Below, piece by piece: positions 3,262-25,677 of a DNA stretch of 64,000 nt. Location: assembly GCA_021828055.1 (NCBI GenBank), contig JAKATH010000001.1:16707-80706 (forward strand), written 5' to 3'. The notes beneath the pieces were generated by a model. The model worked only from the letters and a program-made list of their open reading frames with translations, made no database searches and was not told the origin of the DNA. Position 1 is the stretch's first letter; each line of letters starts with the position of its first letter. Origin of the DNA: Actinomycetes bacterium. GTDB taxonomy: Bacteria; Actinomycetota; Acidimicrobiia; Acidimicrobiales; RAAP-2. The position numbers and the translations under genes were made by a program.

Positions 3262-4734
3262 TCAGCCGCTGGACGCCGCGCCGGCGGGTCCCGCCGGCGC
3301 CGCGGGCGCCGCCGGCGCCGCGTCCGCCACGGGCGCCGCGCGCAGCGTCTGCACGCGGATCGCGAGCCGGGAGCGGTCCACGTCGAGCCTCCGCACGAAC
3401 CGCTCCACCTGCTCGGTGAGGGGCACAGGGCCTGCCCCGCCCGGCGTCGTCCGCCGGACCACCGGCACGCCGGGCTCGAGCAGCTGCGCCCCGGCGTCAC
3501 CGAGGTCCGGGTGCGCCTGGACGAGCTCGACGAGCGGAACGTGACGTGCGGTCGACTCGCGCACGAGGCCGGCGACGAGCGCGTGGGCCTGGCGGAACGG
3601 CGTGCCGCGCGCGACGAGGAGCTCTGCGAGGTCGACGGCGGCCGACGTCGGACCGTCGGCCGCCGCCTGCATCCTCTCCTGGTGCCACTCGACCGTCGCG
3701 TAGAGGCCCGCCAGCGCGCGGAGCGTCGCGCGCACCTGCGCAACCGCGTCGAACAGCGGCTCCTTGTCCTCCTGGAGGTCGCGGTTGTACGCGAGCGGGA
3801 GGCCCTTCAAGGTCGTCAGCATCCCGGTGAGATGGCCGACCAGCCTGCCGGCCTTCCCTCGGGCGAGCTCCGCCACGTCGGGGTTCTTCTTCTGGGGCAG
3901 CATCGAGCTGCCGGTCGCGTACTGGTCCGCGAGCGTGCAGAACCCCCACTCCTCGCTCGACCAGAGCACGATCTCCTCGCCCATCCGGGAGAGATGGACT
4001 CCGAGCAGCGCGAGGTCGAACAGGGCCTCCGCCACGAAGTCGCGGTCGCTCACCGCGTCGAGCGAGTTGTCGAAGCGCGAGGCGAAGCCGAGCTGCTCGG
4101 CGACGAAGTCCGGGTCGAGCGGGAGCGAGGAGCCCGCGAGGGCGCCCGCGCCGAGCGGTGACACGTCGAGGCGCTCGACGGTCGAGACGAGCCGGTCGAC
4201 GTCTCGTGCGAGCGCCCACCCGTGAGCGAGCAGGTGGTGCGCGAGCAGCACCGGCTGCGCCCGCTGAAGGTGGGTGTAGCCCGGGAGATAGGCGTCCCCC
4301 GCCTCCGTGGCGCGTCGCAACAGCACCTCTTGGAGCGCGACGACCACTCCTGCGACGTCCAGCAGCGAGCGGCGCGACCACAGCCGGAGGTCGGTCGCCA
4401 CCTGGTCGTTGCGGCTGCGGCCCGTGTGCAGCTTGGCGCCAAGGTCGCCGCAGAGCTCGATGCACCGCCGCTCGACCGCGGTGTGGATGTCTTCGTCTGT
4501 GGGCGCGAACGCGAAGACCCCTGCGGCGAACTCACCGGCGATCTGCGCGAGCGCGTCGATCAGCGACGAGGCCTCCTCGTCGGTGAGGATCCCCGCCTTC
4601 ACCAGCCCCCGCACGTGCGCCTTCGACCCTGCGATGTCGTCGACCGCCAGCTCCTTGTCGAACGACACGCTCACCGAGAGCTCGGCGACCTCGTCGGCCA
4701 TGCCCTCGGCGAACCGGCCCTGCCAGAGGGTCAC
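3262..4734 (-). CDS. argH: argininosuccinate lyase
   Basis: MTLWQGRF N-terminus, fumarate-lyase signature GSSMLPQKKNPD. ATG overlaps the argG stop (ATGA). Ala/Pro-rich repetitive C-terminal tail. Confidence 0.95.
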   Translation of the reverse strand: MTLWQGRFAEGMADEVAELSVSVSFDKELAVDDIAGSKAHVRGLVKAGILTDEEASSLIDALAQIAGEFAAGVFAFAPTDEDIHTAVERRCIELCGDLGAKLHTGRSRNDQVATDLRLWSRRSLLDVAGVVVALQEVLLRRATEAGDAYLPGYTHLQRAQPVLLAHHLLAHGWALARDVDRLVSTVERLDVSPLGAGALAGSSLPLDPDFVAEQLGFASRFDNSLDAVSDRDFVAEALFDLALLGVHLSRMGEEIVLWSSEEWGFCTLADQYATGSSMLPQKKNPDVAELARGKAGRLVGHLTGMLTTLKGLPLAYNRDLQEDKEPLFDAVAQVRATLRALAGLYATVEWHQERMQAAADGPTSAAVDLAELLVARGTPFRQAHALVAGLVRESTARHVPLVELVQAHPDLGDAGAQLLEPGVPVVRRTTPGGAGPVPLTEQVERFVRRLDVDRSRLAIRVQTLRAAPVADAAPAAPAAPAGPAGAASSG

Positions 4735-16074: not shown

Positions 16075-16653
16075 CTACCCCTCTAGTTCCTGGTCCTGGT
16101 GCTTCTGCCGCGCAGCCGCCGACTGCTTGGCGCGCCTGTCCGGCGCCAGCACCATCACCATGTTCCTGCCGTCGAGCCGGGGCTCCGCCTCGATCTTGGC
16201 GGTGCCGTCCGTCTGCTCGGCGATCCTGTCGAGGATCCGCTTCCCGAGCTCGGGGTGGAAGACCTCGCGCCCTCGGAACATGATCGTGATCTTGACCTTG
16301 TGGCCGTCCTCGAGGAACCTCGCCACCTGCCGGGTCTTGGTCTCGAAGTCGCCGGGCCCGATCTTGGGCCGGTACTTCATCTCCTTCAATCCGACGTGGA
16401 CGGTCTTGCGCCGGCTCTCCTTGGCCCGTTGCGCCTCGTCGAACTTGAACTTTCCGTAGTCCATGATCCGACAGACGGGCGGGTTGGCCATCGGGGCCAC
16501 CTCGACGAGATCCATGTCGAGCCCTCTGGCGATGCTCAGCGCCTCGGGCAGCAGCTTGATCCCGAGCTGCTCCCCGTCCGGGGCGACGAGGCGGACCTCG
16601 CGTGCCCGGATGCGGTCGTTGATCCGGTGCTCAGGTGCAGTGGCAGTGACGAT
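16075..16653 (-). CDS. infC: translation initiation factor IF-3 (non-canonical ATC start inferred)
   Basis: The track ORF starts at MDLVEV, but the frame upstream encodes the conserved RINDRIRAREVRLVAPDGEQLGI. No ATG/GTG/TTG is available. ATC 16653 lies 10 nt after GAGAGG; ATC 16623 is the alternative. Confidence 0.8.
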   Translation of the reverse strand: MVTATAPEHRINDRIRAREVRLVAPDGEQLGIKLLPEALSIARGLDMDLVEVAPMANPPVCRIMDYGKFKFDEAQRAKESRRKTVHVGLKEMKYRPKIGPGDFETKTRQVARFLEDGHKVKITIMFRGREVFHPELGKRILDRIAEQTDGTAKIEAEPRLDGRNMVMVLAPDRRAKQSAAARQKHQDQELEG

Positions 16654-16822
16654 GCGGCATCGTCCTCTCTATCTCGGGCCGGCGGTCCTTCCGCGACCAC
16701 GATCTGGCAAGCGGAGCCGTACCCGACCGGGCAATGCCACGTCGACCCGGCGCACTGTGCGTGGCCGGGTGGAGACCCCTCGTCGAGCGGGCCCCGCTTC
16801 CTCGACTCCATAGGCTACCAGC

Positions 16823-22333: not shown

Positions 22334-23281
22334 CTACGAGCCGCCGAGCCGCTCGCCGCCGACCGGGCGCGCGCCACGCAGCCATTCGGCCGCGCGCATG
22401 GGCGCTCTCCCTTCGGGCTGCACCCGCAGCAGCTGCAGCGCGCCGCGCCCGGTGACGGCGGTGGAGCCGACGAGGGACCCGGGCGCCGCCCCGACGCCGG
22501 CCGCCCCGACGCCGGGCGTCGCGACCGCCTCGGCGTCCAGCACGAGCAGCCGCCGCCCCCGCCACGTCGTCCACGCGCGGTCCAGGCGCACGACCCGTGC
22601 GAGCTCGGCAGCCGGCCGCGACCATGTGAGCCGGAGCTCTTCGGGGTCGAGCTTCTCCGCGTACGTCGGCTCGCCGGCTTGCGGCAGGGGCTCGGCGAGC
22701 GGGCGGCCGAGCACGTCGACGAGGAGGCGGGTGCCGACCTCGACGAGACGGCCGCGCAGCGACCCGAGGTGCTCGCCGGGCGCGATCTCGACCTCCCTGC
22801 TCGCGTACAGCGGGCCGGTGTCGAGCTCCTCTGCGAGCGCCATGACGCACACGCCGGTCACCGCGTCGCCGGCGAGGATCGCCCGCTCGACCGGCGCCGC
22901 GCCGCGCCAGCGCGGGAGCAGCGAGAAGTGGAGGTTCACCATCGGGAGCCGCTCCAGGACCGGCCCGGGGACGACGCGGCCGTAGGCGACCACGACGCCG
23001 AGCTCGGCACCCGCGTCGGCGACCGCGTCGAGCGCGTGGGCGACCGGGAGCCCGAGCTGCTCGGCCTCCGCCTTCACAGGGCTCGCGGAAGTGCCCGCTC
23101 CCCTGCCGCGCCGGCGGTCGGGCCGGGTGACCACGAGCCGCACGTCGTGCCCGGCCCGCACGAGCGCGCGCAGCGGCGTCACCGCGAGGGCAGGCGTGCC
23201 GAGGTAGACGAGCCTGCGGCTCGCCGCCGCCGGCGCGCCGGCCGTCTTCGTGCTCGCGGCGCCCGGTCCCCGCTCGCTCAG
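22334..23281 (-). CDS. fmt: methionyl-tRNA formyltransferase (start unresolved; CTG 23281 proposed)
   Basis: HFSLLPRWRGAAPVERAI motif. The conserved N-terminal RLVYLGTPALAV lies upstream of the first canonical start (GTG 23182). See the def-fmt finding. Confidence 0.75.
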   Translation of the reverse strand: MSERGPGAASTKTAGAPAAASRRLVYLGTPALAVTPLRALVRAGHDVRLVVTRPDRRRGRGAGTSASPVKAEAEQLGLPVAHALDAVADAGAELGVVVAYGRVVPGPVLERLPMVNLHFSLLPRWRGAAPVERAILAGDAVTGVCVMALAEELDTGPLYASREVEIAPGEHLGSLRGRLVEVGTRLLVDVLGRPLAEPLPQAGEPTYAEKLDPEELRLTWSRPAAELARVVRLDRAWTTWRGRRLLVLDAEAVATPGVGAAGVGAAPGSLVGSTAVTGRGALQLLRVQPEGRAPMRAAEWLRGARPVGGERLGGS

Positions 23282-23302
23282 CGCCCGGTCCCCGCTCGCT
23301 CA
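23259..23302. repeat. perfect tandem duplication, 22 bp x2
   Basis: GCGCCCGGTCCCCGCTCGCTCA x2, between def and the conserved part of fmt. Confidence 0.95.
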
Positions 23303-23308
23303 GCGCTC

Positions 23309-23363
23309 GATCACCCGGCGATCACCCGGCGAGCACGCGGCGATCACCCGGCGAGCACGCGGG
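23309..23363. repeat. tandem duplication, 22 bp x2.5, of the def 3' end including its stop codon
   Basis: GATCACCCGGC + GATCACCCGGCGAGCACGCGGC + GATCACCCGGCGAGCACGCGGG. The real def stop is 23344-23346. Confidence 0.95.
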
Positions 23364-23832
23364 CGCGCAGCACCTTCAGCGCCTCGCGCCGCTGGTCCTC
23401 GTCGAGCCGCTCGATGAGGAGCGTCCCGTCCAGGTGGTCCACCTCGTGCTGGAAGACGCGCGCCTGGTACTCCTCCGCTTCGATCGACAGCTCCTTCCCG
23501 TCGAGGTCGAGGCCGCTCAGGTGCACCCTGTTCGGACGGACGATGGTCCAGCTGAGGCCGGGGACCGAGAGGCATCCCTCCTCGAAGGTCCACTCTCCCG
23601 ACGTCTCGGTGATGCGCGGGTTGATCACGACCTGCGGGCCGTCGCCGATGTCGTAGACGAAGAGCCGCCGCCGCACGCCGACCTGGTTGGCGGCGAGGCC
23701 CACGCCAGGAGCCTCGCGCATGGTCTCGATCATGTCGCCGACGAGCCTGGCGAGGCGGCCGTCGATCTCTTCCACGTCCTTCGTCGGCTGCTTGAGGACC
23801 GGGTCCCCGTACGTGCGAATGCTGAGCACCAC
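23344..23832 (-). CDS. def: peptide deformylase
   Basis: GVGLAANQVG, EGCLSVPG and QHEVDHLDG. TAAACT box 5 nt before the GTG start. Confidence 0.95.
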   Translation of the reverse strand: MVLSIRTYGDPVLKQPTKDVEEIDGRLARLVGDMIETMREAPGVGLAANQVGVRRRLFVYDIGDGPQVVINPRITETSGEWTFEEGCLSVPGLSWTIVRPNRVHLSGLDLDGKELSIEAEEYQARVFQHEVDHLDGTLLIERLDEDQRREALKVLRARVLAG

Positions 23833-23934: not shown

Positions 23935-25677
23935 TCACACGTCGACGGGGTCGACGCGAACGCCGCCCTGCAGGGGCGTGACGGCGTCGCACAGCGTCCG
24001 GTGGTCGGGCGCGCGCAGGAGCCAGAGGCCTGGCTGCAGCGGCGACACCTCCACGCCCTCGGCGCCGAGGTCGGGCGTGGCGTCCGCCTTCAGCGTCGCC
24101 AGCGCGCTGAACGGCGGCAGGCGCAGCGCCTCCCGCAGGTCCAGCTCTGTGAAGAGCCCCGGGTCCCCGCCCGCCGCGGCGCGCAGCACGTCGTGGGTCG
24201 GGAGCCGGGTCTGGACCATCACGATCCCCGCCCTCCCTCCGGCGACGCCGCCGCCCTCCCGGTCTCCACGGCCGCCGACGAGACGCCCCGCTCGCACGAG
24301 CAGCGCGAGCGACTCCTCCCCAGCGGAGAAGCGCGGAGCGAGGAGGTGCTGGTCGAAGTCCAAGAAGACGATCGCCTCGGCGCGCCGCACCCGGTGCAGC
24401 ACCGCCTCCGTGCCGACCAGGACAGGTGTGCGGGGAACGGCCGCCTCGGCGTCGCGGGAGCCGGTCCGCCGGCCGGAGACCTCCCCGACCGGCACGCCCA
24501 GGAGCGCCTCGAGCTCCTCACGGGCCCGCCCGACGCCCATGCGAAGGACCCTCAGGCGCACCGAGCCGCACGCCGCGCACACGACGGGCCGCTCCGCCCC
24601 GCACCTCCTGCAGCCCAGCACGTCGCCGGCCGACTCCACGGCACGCCCGCACTCCGCGCAGCGCACGAGCCCGCCGCACGCCGCGCACGCGAGCAGCCTC
24701 GCCCGTCCCGCCCGGTTGAGCACGCACACGACGCGTCCGCCGCCGGCCACCACCTCGCGGGCGAGGGCCACCAGCTCCTCGGAGAACAGCCCGGTGCGAG
24801 GGTCCGCGCCCCGGCGGTCGACGACGAAGACCGCTGGCCATCCCGACCGCTCGGTCGAGCGCTCGGGGGCCTCGAGCGGGCCGTAGCGGGCTCGCTGCAC
24901 CGCGGTCGGACAGGGCGAGACGAGCACGCACGGCGCGCCGTCCCGCGCGGCGCGCTCGGCCACCACCTCCACGGCGTCGTAACGGTCGTGGTAGTCGTGC
25001 ACGTCGAGGACCACCGCCGCGGCGAGCGACGGCACCGGCGCCCACGCCGCCGCCCGGGACCCGACCACGACCGGCCACCCCGCCGCGGCCTCCGCCCAGC
25101 TCGACGCCACGTCGAGGCCCCGGGCCCGGAGCCTCTGGCCGAGCCGGTCGGCCCACCCGGTGCTCGGCGCGAGGACGAGCACCGACCTCCGCCCCGGCCC
25201 CGCAGGGCCCGCCGCCCCTGCCGCGGCGATCACCTCGAGGACCGCCGGGAGGAGGTCCTGCGCCGGGGGCAGGCGGCGGAGCGCCGCACCCGGACGGAGC
25301 GGGCCCGCCGCGACCGCGCGTCCCGCCGGCCGCATGCCGCCGGCCGGCGGGGCCGGCAGCGCCGAGACGTTGCGGTCGGGCGACGCGGTGCGCAGCAGGG
25401 TCGCGACCGGCATGGCCCAGCGCCATGCGCCCCACTCGGCGAGCTGGAGGACGCCCGCGGGCGGGCCCCACCCCGACACCCCGGTCACCTCGCGCACCTC
25501 GACGCCCGCCGGCGGCGTGACCCCGATCTCGGCGACCCACGCGCCGACACGACGTCCGTGGAACGGCACGCGCACCCGGGTGCCCAGCCGGACGTCGCGC
25601 TGCCAGCGCAGGGGCACCGAGTAGTCGAACCGGCGCCGGCTCACCGCCGGCACGTCCGGGACGACGCGGACGATCAG
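23935..25677 (-). CDS. priA: primosomal protein N' (PriA) family protein with degenerate ATPase motifs
   Basis: N-terminal [20 protein letters not shown] and four CxxC pairs ([14 protein letters not shown]...CRRCG...CAACG). No GKT/GKS Walker A. Start inferred at CTG 25677 in CTGA overlap with the metK stop. Confidence 0.75.

Follow-up and report, generated by a model that had tools for sequence, protein, structure and literature searches.

The def-fmt junction of an Acidimicrobiales genome: a candidate CTG start for fmt behind an 11-nt repeat of stop/start modules

How is translation of a gene started when its reading frame offers no ATG, GTG or TTG ahead of the conserved N-terminus of the protein? 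This question is raised by the junction between def (peptide deformylase) and fmt (methionyl-tRNA formyltransferase) on contig JAKATH010000001.1 of an Acidimicrobiales genome (assembly GCA_021828055.1), of which we analyzed a stretch of 64 kb, referred to below as the window. Both genes lie on the minus strand, and the region that joins them is filled by short tandem repeats. An initial annotation of the DNA had proposed three explanations for this arrangement: fmt starts at a non-canonical codon following a short leader that is coupled to def, it needs read-through of an in-frame TGA, or it is damaged. As set out below, a comparison with related loci argues for the first of these: fmt probably starts at the CTG codon at 23281-23279, as the last step of a stop/start relay that would have been weakened by a recent duplication. 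The whole case is a comparative one, built on the sequences of this locus and its relatives.

The junction and the reading frame of fmt

The following features make up the junction. Coordinates are positions in the window, and the sources are given in brackets.

23344..23832, minus strand: def (peptide deformylase) coding sequence, with a GTG start and the stop TGA 23346-23344 (list of open reading frames, ORFs; Pfam Pep_deformylase, E=2e-50)
22334..23281, minus strand: fmt (methionyl-tRNA formyltransferase) coding sequence as proposed here, 315 codons plus stop (Pfam Formyl_trans_N and Formyl_trans_C; alignment with 1fmt)
23259..23362, minus strand: 11-nt lattice of eight units, spanning both 22-bp repeats noted earlier (Tandem Repeats Finder, TRF; unit-by-unit read-out)
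23300..23347, minus strand: mini-ORF A, starting at the GTG on the def stop (GTGA), 15 codons VIAACSPGDRRVIER, stop TGA 23302-23300 (homologous mini-ORFs in the related loci L001, L171, L161 and L170)
GTG 23314, minus strand: mini-ORF C, nested in mini-ORF A, 4 codons (VIER*), with the same frame and stop as A
23311..23325, minus strand: mini-ORF B, GTG ATC GCC GGG TGA (VIAG*), of which the TGA overlaps GTG 23314
23301..23303, minus strand: CTG on the leader stop (CTGA), the putative ancestral coupled start position, now out of the fmt frame (chain analysis)
23281..23302, minus strand: upstream copy of the 22-nt unit TGAGCGAGCGGGGACCGGGCGC, a lineage-specific extra copy that carries GGGGA 23293-23289 (TRF, 100% identity; single-copy in L001, L171, L161 and L170)
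23259..23280, minus strand: downstream copy of the 22-nt unit, within the proposed fmt coding sequence, encoding SERGPGA after the CTG
23279..23281, minus strand: CTG proposed as the start of fmt; it shares the fmt frame, lies 26 codons ahead of the L in LGTP and 18 nt downstream of the leader stop, and has GGGGA 7 nt upstream of it
23180..23182, minus strand: GTG, the first canonical start in the fmt frame and the one chosen for the database protein P0001; a start here loses residues equivalent to about 1-14 of E. coli Fmt

The def protein ends with ...RVLAG, followed by TGA at 23346-23344. Read from the GTG that lies on this stop (23347-23345) and that shares the frame of fmt, the minus strand translates into VIAACSPGDRRVIER*, then ASGDRALSERGPGAASTKTAGAPAAASRRLVYLGTPALAV..., where the stop is the TGA at 23302-23300 in the same frame, which is open from 23299 on. 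The frame holds no ATG, GTG or TTG ahead of GTG 23182, and CTG 23281 is the sole codon of the set CTG, ATT, ATC and ATA between the upstream stop and the N-terminal strand of the protein. The G+C content of the window is 74%. All of these positions had been read correctly in the initial annotation, and so had the consequence of a start at GTG 23182, namely that the conserved N-terminal motif would be deleted.

The latter follows from the domain composition of the protein. The window fmt contains the usual domain pair (PF00551, Formyl_trans_N, E=1.8e-31; PF02911, Formyl_trans_C, E=1.4e-9) and aligns with residues 3-304 of E. coli Fmt (1fmt, E=1.3e-48), including the catalytic-site motif N-x-H-x-SLLPRWRGAAP (NLHFSLLPRWRGAAP, aligned with NVHGSLLPRWRGAAP of E. 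coli). The Formyl_trans_N match starts at the V of RRLVYLGTP, which is profile position 4. In the 1fmt alignment, RRLVYLGTP is found opposite LRIIFAGTP, and residue 3 of the E. coli protein is found opposite the S just before RRLVY. Given these alignments, a start at GTG 23182 would lose the first beta strand and the GTP loop, while the N-terminal strand is included if translation begins upstream of that codon. The database protein for the contig (P0001) is nevertheless a call of 282 amino acids that is truncated at GTG 23182. That this call is right and that Fmt works without its first strand is highly improbable. The codon was chosen by the gene caller as the first ATG, GTG or TTG in frame, but the choice removes RRLVYLGTPALA, which aligns with residues 3-14 of E. 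coli Fmt and with the Pfam profile from position 4; moreover, the 39 codons upstream of it are open, conserved in relatives and of coding-type third-position G+C content (GC3). The truncated calls in relatives start at differing, non-homologous positions, which is the pattern expected of gene-caller artefacts.

The part of Fmt that precedes the N-terminal strand consists of 20-odd residues and is rich in Ala, Gly, Pro, Ser and Thr. It begins with L-S/R/N-x-R-G-P/S-G-A-A in the window, L001 and L161, and this beginning is partly conserved in L170 (the peptides after CTG read LSERGPGAA, LSGRGPGAA, LRGRGPGAA and LNGRGSVTA). The extension looks coding; its GC3 is 0.95, with 0.93-0.96 in the window, L001 and L170, compared to 0.945 for the fmt core. 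The core comprises 292 open codons from LVYLGTP on, free of stops and frameshifts, and dN/dS values of 0.37-0.39 relative to L001, L161 and L170, a measure to which a very recent loss of expression is invisible, indicate purifying selection. Judged by these sequence data the core is intact, and none of the marks of a pseudogene (internal stops, frameshifts, relaxed core constraint) was recovered. The search for a second fmt copy that the initial annotation had suggested gave none within the window, which covers only part of the genome.

The start of fmt in related loci

Is the missing start peculiar to this genome? In a survey of 157 related Acidimicrobiales loci, the [LFMV]G[TS]P motif was located in every fetched locus, and ATG, GTG or TTG was sought 4-45 codons upstream of it, within the open frame (L002 and L081 have the same sequence; the motif of L137 was a false one). 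We found that 16 of the 157 fmt genes lack all three codons before the N-terminal strand. When the neighbouring genes of these loci were put to the same test, a start was missing in 0 of 144 def genes and in 1 of 62 rpe genes (fmt versus controls, Fisher p = 2.5e-5). The trait is patchy, affecting about 10% of the Acidimicrobiales loci and about 40% of the nearest clade, and a neighbour-joining tree built from 156 distinct Fmt cores requires it to have changed state at least 12 times. The database calls reflect the same situation: a truncated N-terminus was called for 22 of the best 120 database homologues, and 17 of these rank in the top 45. All nine truncated homologues that were examined (P0010, P0011, P0014, P0017, P0032, P0053, P0062, P0043 and P0024) are contig-internal and genuinely without a canonical start. 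In the sole deviating rpe gene (L049, ~3959-4010), a CTG lies in frame 5 codons upstream, and an ATG close by is out of frame.

A control within the window was formed by 20 stop-to-stop ORFs, chosen for having 20 codons or more between the upstream stop and the first canonical start. Besides fmt, only infC, encoding initiation factor 3 (IF3), has the N-terminus of its Pfam domain upstream of the first canonical start.

16075-16668, minus strand: infC (IF3), with an in-frame ATC at 16653-16651, 9 nt after GAGAGGA

The IF3_N domain begins at codon 16, and the open frame offers its first canonical start at codon 51. The ATC is the likely start, of the classical IF3-autoregulated type. As infC was the only such case besides fmt, non-canonical starts are not general in this genome, and a genome-wide relaxation of start-codon use is ruled out by the def and rpe controls together with the within-window control. 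The absence of a canonical fmt start is thus, in this survey, a trait of the clade and not a product of the duplications at the junction, a point on which the initial annotation was wrong or incomplete.

The nearest fmt loci that we recovered are from metagenome-assembled Acidimicrobiales, with protein identities of 87% (L001), 83% (L161) and 79% (L170); a further group has 73-77%. Neither Def nor the called Fmt had an exact sequence match on any other contig, and scans of genomes and metagenomes returned nothing above 87% identity. Within this set, nearly every start-less fmt has an in-frame CTG, either at the position where relatives have ATG or GTG, or on a TGA stop (CTGA). The first situation, a CTG at the homologous start of M(A)RLVFLGTP, is found in L016, L028 and L133 (LARLVF...) and in L034, L056, L096, L102 and L146 (LRLVF/LRLAY...). 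In four of these (L016, L034, L056 and L102) the frame is closed by a stop 7-9 codons ahead of the motif, which leaves no start other than CTG available. The second situation, with the CTG on the TGA of def itself and in the fmt frame, is found in L002, L003, L006, L030, L104, L117, L164, L168 and L173, and has the same geometry as the ATGA, GTGA and TTGA def/fmt overlaps of other relatives. L031 (Aquihabitans sp. McL0605), a cultivable relative, combines an in-frame CTGA with a GTG four codons further on. Altogether def ends with CTGA in 93 loci, and the CTG is in the fmt frame in 45 of these, against 31 expected (p = 0.003, uncorrected for kinship).

The closest relatives show a variant of this second situation, in which one or more short ORFs are interposed between def and fmt. 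The chain of L170 runs from the def TGA/GTG via VTER* and TGA/CTG to fmt; that of L161 from def via VTAE*, VIGR* and CTGA to fmt; that of L001 from def via a 15-codon ORF, VIDR* and CTGA to fmt; and that of L171/L172 from def via VISG*, a 15-codon ORF and CTGA to fmt. All four arrive in frame. The 4-nt NTGA overlap of stop and start (N, any nucleotide) is found in L001, L171, L161, L170, L002, L003, L164, L168 and L173, and CTG 23281 of the window is homologous to the in-frame CTGA codon of L001, L161, L170, L002, L003, L164, L168 and L173.

The overlaps might also be used without any initiation at CTG. A ribosome could make a -1 shift at the NUGA overlap without releasing the peptide and read CUG as leucine, which would yield a Def-Fmt or leader-Fmt fusion (in the window, a +1 frameshift from the frame of CTG 23303). 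There is a precedent in the AUGA overlap of M. tuberculosis, where stop-codon suppression and frameshifting give a fusion of an upstream ORF (uORF) with PPE2 (PMC11260477), and many relatives have their CTG exactly on the TGA. We consider the explanation improbable, given that L016, L034, L056 and L102, with an in-frame stop few codons upstream and without overlap, need true CTG initiation. Furthermore, no slippery heptamer was seen at the overlaps, and in the window the route from CTG 23303 leads into the wrong frame. A stimulatory structure is not apparent either, as the fold of the junction is no better than that of shuffled sequences (z = -1.03), and a search of the junction against Rfam gave no match at the gathering threshold or at E <= 1, except for one meaningless miRNA match.

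The 11-nt lattice and the 22-nt duplication

The two tandem arrays of 22-bp units described in the initial annotation were recovered by TRF. The array at 23308-23362 has a period of 22 (2.5 copies, 93%) or alternatively of 11 (5.0 copies, 86%), and the one at 23259-23306 has a period of 22 (2.2 copies, 100%). Among the arrays in the window with a period that is not a multiple of 3 these two score best, and they are not chance matches. The initial annotation called the two repeat units unrelated, which proved mistaken: when the sequence is read in 11-nt steps from the def stop, all eight units fall on one lattice.

Unit 1: 23347, minus strand, GTGATCGCCGC
Unit 2: 23336, minus strand, GTGCTCGCCGG
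Unit 3: 23325, minus strand, GTGATCGCCGG
Unit 4: 23314, minus strand, GTGATCGAGCG
Unit 5: 23303, minus strand, CTGAGCGAGCG
Unit 6: 23292, minus strand, GGGACCGGGCG
Unit 7: 23281, minus strand, CTGAGCGAGCG
Unit 8: 23270, minus strand, GGGACCGGGCG

Unit 4 (GTGATCGAGCG) and unit 5 (CTGAGCGAGCG), where the two arrays meet, differ at just two of 11 positions, and the two 22-bp repeats therefore constitute one family. Five of the eight units start with NTGA (three GTGA, two CTGA), and every NTGA motif of the junction lies on this single lattice. The period has a direct effect on the reading frames. Because 11 equals 12 minus 1, the GTG of one unit shares its frame with the TGA one unit further on, which gives an ORF of 4 codons; if that unit has no TGA, the frame runs to the TGA four units away and the ORF has 15 codons. 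Each GTGA copy thus forms an ORF of which the TGA lies on the next start, so that the hand-on from def could survive expansion of the array.

The GGTGATC of the units is complementary to the conserved 3' end of 16S rRNA (GAUCACCUCC), and each lattice unit may thereby serve as the ribosome-binding site for the next start. The window contains no 16S gene. GGTGATC occurs 26 times in the window against 8.6 expected; as an indication of a general ribosome-binding motif this enrichment was rejected as uninformative, being confounded by in-frame Val-Ile and Asp-His coding.

The relatives allow the two arrays to be ordered in time. The first array is old and shared with the relatives, and in L001, L171/L172, L161 and L170 it is followed by a single copy of the CTGA-headed 22-nt unit, with the CTG in the fmt frame. 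The second, perfect copy of this unit (TGAGCGAGCGGGGACCGGGCGC) is found in the window and in none of the relatives examined; this duplication is specific to the window's genome. That the old array is subject to change can be seen within a single species: L171/L172, which come from other samples, are identical to L001 in the Fmt protein and the flanks, and differ by five substitutions that all lie within the 11-nt array, in the 33 nt after the def stop. The array is thus a substitution hot spot in the L001 species, which suggests gene conversion or slippage among the repeat units, and the relay was kept in L171 despite the five changes.

In the window the relay was not kept. As 22 equals 1 modulo 3, the duplication shifts the register and places CTG 23303 out of the fmt frame. 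The 4-nt overlaps from def to mini-ORF A (GTGA 23347-23344) and from mini-ORF A to CTG 23303 (CTGA) are still present, and CTG 23281, 18 nt past the stop, cannot be reached by any NTGA step. The initial annotation had asked whether one copy would restore a simple arrangement, and this is indeed the case: removal of one 22-nt copy in silico yields def-GTGA, a 15-codon leader, CTGA and fmt, all in frame, as in L001, L171, L161 and L170.

The same shift brought the GTG on the def stop into the fmt frame, which bears on the second of the three options. Efficient def-coupled initiation at GTG 23347 followed by read-through of TGA 23302-23300 would produce an Fmt with an N-terminal extension of 38 residues. 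UGA is the leakiest stop codon, a single TGA separates the GTG from fmt, and the yield of a coupled canonical start, even if reduced to about 1% by the read-through, might be on a par with that of direct CUG initiation. Yet it took the 22-nt duplication to create the arrangement; the GTG of the relatives and of the one-copy state lies in another frame. For that reason read-through from GTG 23347 cannot, on this comparison, have been the ancestral mechanism, and it would leave the clade-wide pattern unexplained. We found neither of the features that mark programmed read-through, i.e. an in-frame stop that is conserved in relatives and a stimulatory structure, nor a known promoting element (fold z = -1.03; no Rfam match at the junction). 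As the principal source of Fmt it is very unlikely, leaving room at most for a minor contribution in the present-day allele.

The third option, that the allele is damaged or strongly hypomorphic, is a live alternative because the duplication puts the stop-coupled CTG out of frame. The duplication would then have arisen by slippage very recently, represent a minority variant that became fixed in the assembly, or be an assembly artefact, with little or no Fmt made and either weak formylation being tolerated or another fmt copy being present elsewhere. In line with this, the two copies are 100% identical, the duplication is seen in none of the relatives examined, and the relay is broken in the window only and repaired by removing one copy. 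The decoy CTG 23303 retains the -4 overlap, and at the distance of 18 nt at which the in-frame CTG is found coupling is largely lost (PMC10666635); in addition, the genome appears prone to tandem repeats. Against it stand the intact core without stops and its dN/dS (blind to a very recent event, as mentioned), as well as the exact retention of the in-frame CTG and of its ancestral downstream context, now with GGGGA 7 nt upstream. One would not expect a strongly deleterious variant to form the consensus of a 122-kb contig, the 48-bp repeat is well within read length, which makes an assembly artefact unlikely, and a back-up copy of fmt is lacking in the 64 kb analyzed. Weighing these points, we regard a damaged allele as rather unlikely.

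Tandem duplication is not confined to the lattice. TRF returned 59 rows for the window, mostly with periods that are multiples of 3 (9, 15, 18, 21, 27 and 33), so that most arrays can expand without a shift of frame, and the genome appears unusually prone to short tandem duplication. One example lies inside fmt (22485-22515, minus strand), where a perfect 15-bp tandem duplication (GVGAA twice) forms an in-frame insertion in what is a variable linker, the region aligning between the two Fmt domains. In L006 (~1640-1700) a 27-bp tandem duplication (PRPAWPERH twice) is found at the C-terminal end of def, directly before the CTGA def/fmt overlap, and in P0026 the N-terminal extension of Fmt contains 13 residues in tandem duplicate (PADPAAPGLRRPL twice). 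Within this order, the def-fmt junction has repeatedly been subject to tandem duplication.

Probable initiation at CTG 23281 and its parallels

Taken together, the comparison suggests the following course of events for the start at CTG 23281 that we consider probable. In the ancestral state the CTG would have overlapped the TGA (CTGA) of def itself, or that of a short ORF starting at the GTG on the def stop (GTGA), and ribosomes that ended def would have been passed to fmt through termination-reinitiation, a process that is established for overlapping stop and start codons (Huber et al. 2019, PMC6728339). The 11-nt repeats would then be duplicated stop/start modules. The recent perfect 22-nt duplication presumably copied the CTGA unit, which put the CTG on the leader stop in the wrong frame and left the in-frame CTG 18 nt further on, behind the weak Shine-Dalgarno-like GGGGA. 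Fmt would now be made at a reduced level, by short-range reinitiation or by direct initiation at CTG 23281, and the GGGGA, 7 nt before the CTG and supplied by the upstream copy, may allow some independent ribosome binding.

Several observations weigh against a CTG start or against its use through the relay. Relative to AUG, a CUG start has 1-2% of the activity in E. coli, and IF3 rejects it (PMC5499595); in mycobacteria it is rarely used, to the extent that an AUG-to-CUG change has served as a knock-out of a uORF start (PMC11260477). The 18 nt between the leader stop and CTG 23281 has to be seen against the steep decay of coupling with distance: in E. coli and Haloferax, 40-80% of it has gone at +14 nt and almost all from about 20 nt on (Huber et al. 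2023, PMC10666635). The CTG that did keep the stop overlap, at 23303, opens an ORF of 561 codons in the wrong frame and would act as a decoy. Two ACG codons in the fmt frame downstream of CTG 23281 (23251-23249 and 23245-23243) are other weak candidates for the start. The continuity of the relay is partly an automatic outcome of the 11-nt period. Among the relatives, L001 and L161 also carry a GTG nearer to the motif, so that use of the CTG is not required there. L165/L166 (two independent assemblies, ~1399-1445) have no in-frame NTG before the N-terminal strand, and in L167 (~1141-1185) the sole in-frame CTG is the L of RRLVY. The TGA of def is in the fmt frame in all three, and these loci must use something else: read-through, frameshifting or loss of function. 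Finally, the trait flips frequently, which can be explained by weak selection on start-codon identity just as well as by regulation.

The component parts of the proposed arrangement are known in kind: coupling by overlapping stops and starts, short upstream ORFs, and a non-canonical start on an initiation gene, infC. As in the overlapping ATGA and GTGA pairs studied before (PMC6728339, PMC10666635), 4-nt NTGA overlaps join def, the mini-ORFs and fmt on one strand, and the dependence on a short distance would explain why mini-ORFs matter once the array has grown. The junction differs from these pairs in its final start, which would be CTG instead of ATG, GTG or TTG, and in the interposition of one to three ORFs of 4 or 15 codons derived from an 11-nt repeat, the last link being out of register in the window. 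Another actinobacterial case of a short upstream ORF with its stop on the main start (AUGA) is uPPE2-PPE2 of M. tuberculosis, in which the uORF is needed for downstream expression (PMC11260477); that system has AUG as its main start and involves a riboswitch, whereas here the start would be CTG and the short ORFs would be coupled to a full-length def. The order of the genes and the two-domain enzyme are the same as in E. coli (1fmt/2fmt), from which the window Fmt differs by its 20-odd-residue N-terminal extension and the lack of a canonical start. A report on reinitiation at non-canonical codons (PMC4648390) concerns a eukaryotic system and was not used. In the literature we found no description of a recurrent CTG start on fmt, of a chain of mini-ORFs made from an 11-nt tandem repeat of a stop/start module, or of a natural allele in which the register of such a chain is broken by a 22-nt duplication.

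The closest parallel for the start codon itself is infC. Its AUU or AUC start, reported in all bacterial species, is discriminated against by IF3, which leads to autoregulation (PMC5499595). Like infC, fmt belongs to the initiation machinery and its start would lie, recurrently among orthologues, outside AUG, GUG and UUG, with a near-cognate codon at the orthologous start position. Unlike that of infC, the trait is patchy instead of conserved across orthologues, and no feedback loop by Fmt is known. One might speculate that fmt resembles infC in this branch of the Acidimicrobiales in that its synthesis is set by start-codon fidelity, an IF3-discriminated CUG being reached only via the stop/start chain from def. 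The GGTGATC-containing 11-nt unit, combining a Shine-Dalgarno-like element, a GTG and a TGA, would then be a self-copying relay that can be expanded without breaking the coupling, and the window would offer the single type of duplication that does disrupt it, 22 nt long and falling on the CTGA unit. This extended proposal is tentative, and we consider it doubtful as a whole.

Some consequences are of practical interest. Gene callers that accept ATG, GTG and TTG only truncate Fmt in a sizeable share of the Acidimicrobiales genomes (22 of the 120 best homologues), and the loss of a structural strand provides wrong proteins for work on Fmt or on def-fmt as antibiotic targets. Natural bacterial CUG starts are very rare. 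If true, the recurrence of CUG as the start codon for the formylating enzyme of the initiator tRNA, beside an infC that is started by ATC, would tie the level of Fmt to the fidelity of initiation. The 11-nt repeat would illustrate how an intergenic region can grow by tandem copying of a stop/start overlap without losing translational coupling, with the 22-nt duplication of the window as a natural counter-example.

A gene for the initiator tRNA was not found in the window. The single ARAGORN match (24092-24182, minus strand), reported as 'tRNA-???' with a two-base anticodon, lies inside the coding region of priA and is probably a false positive.

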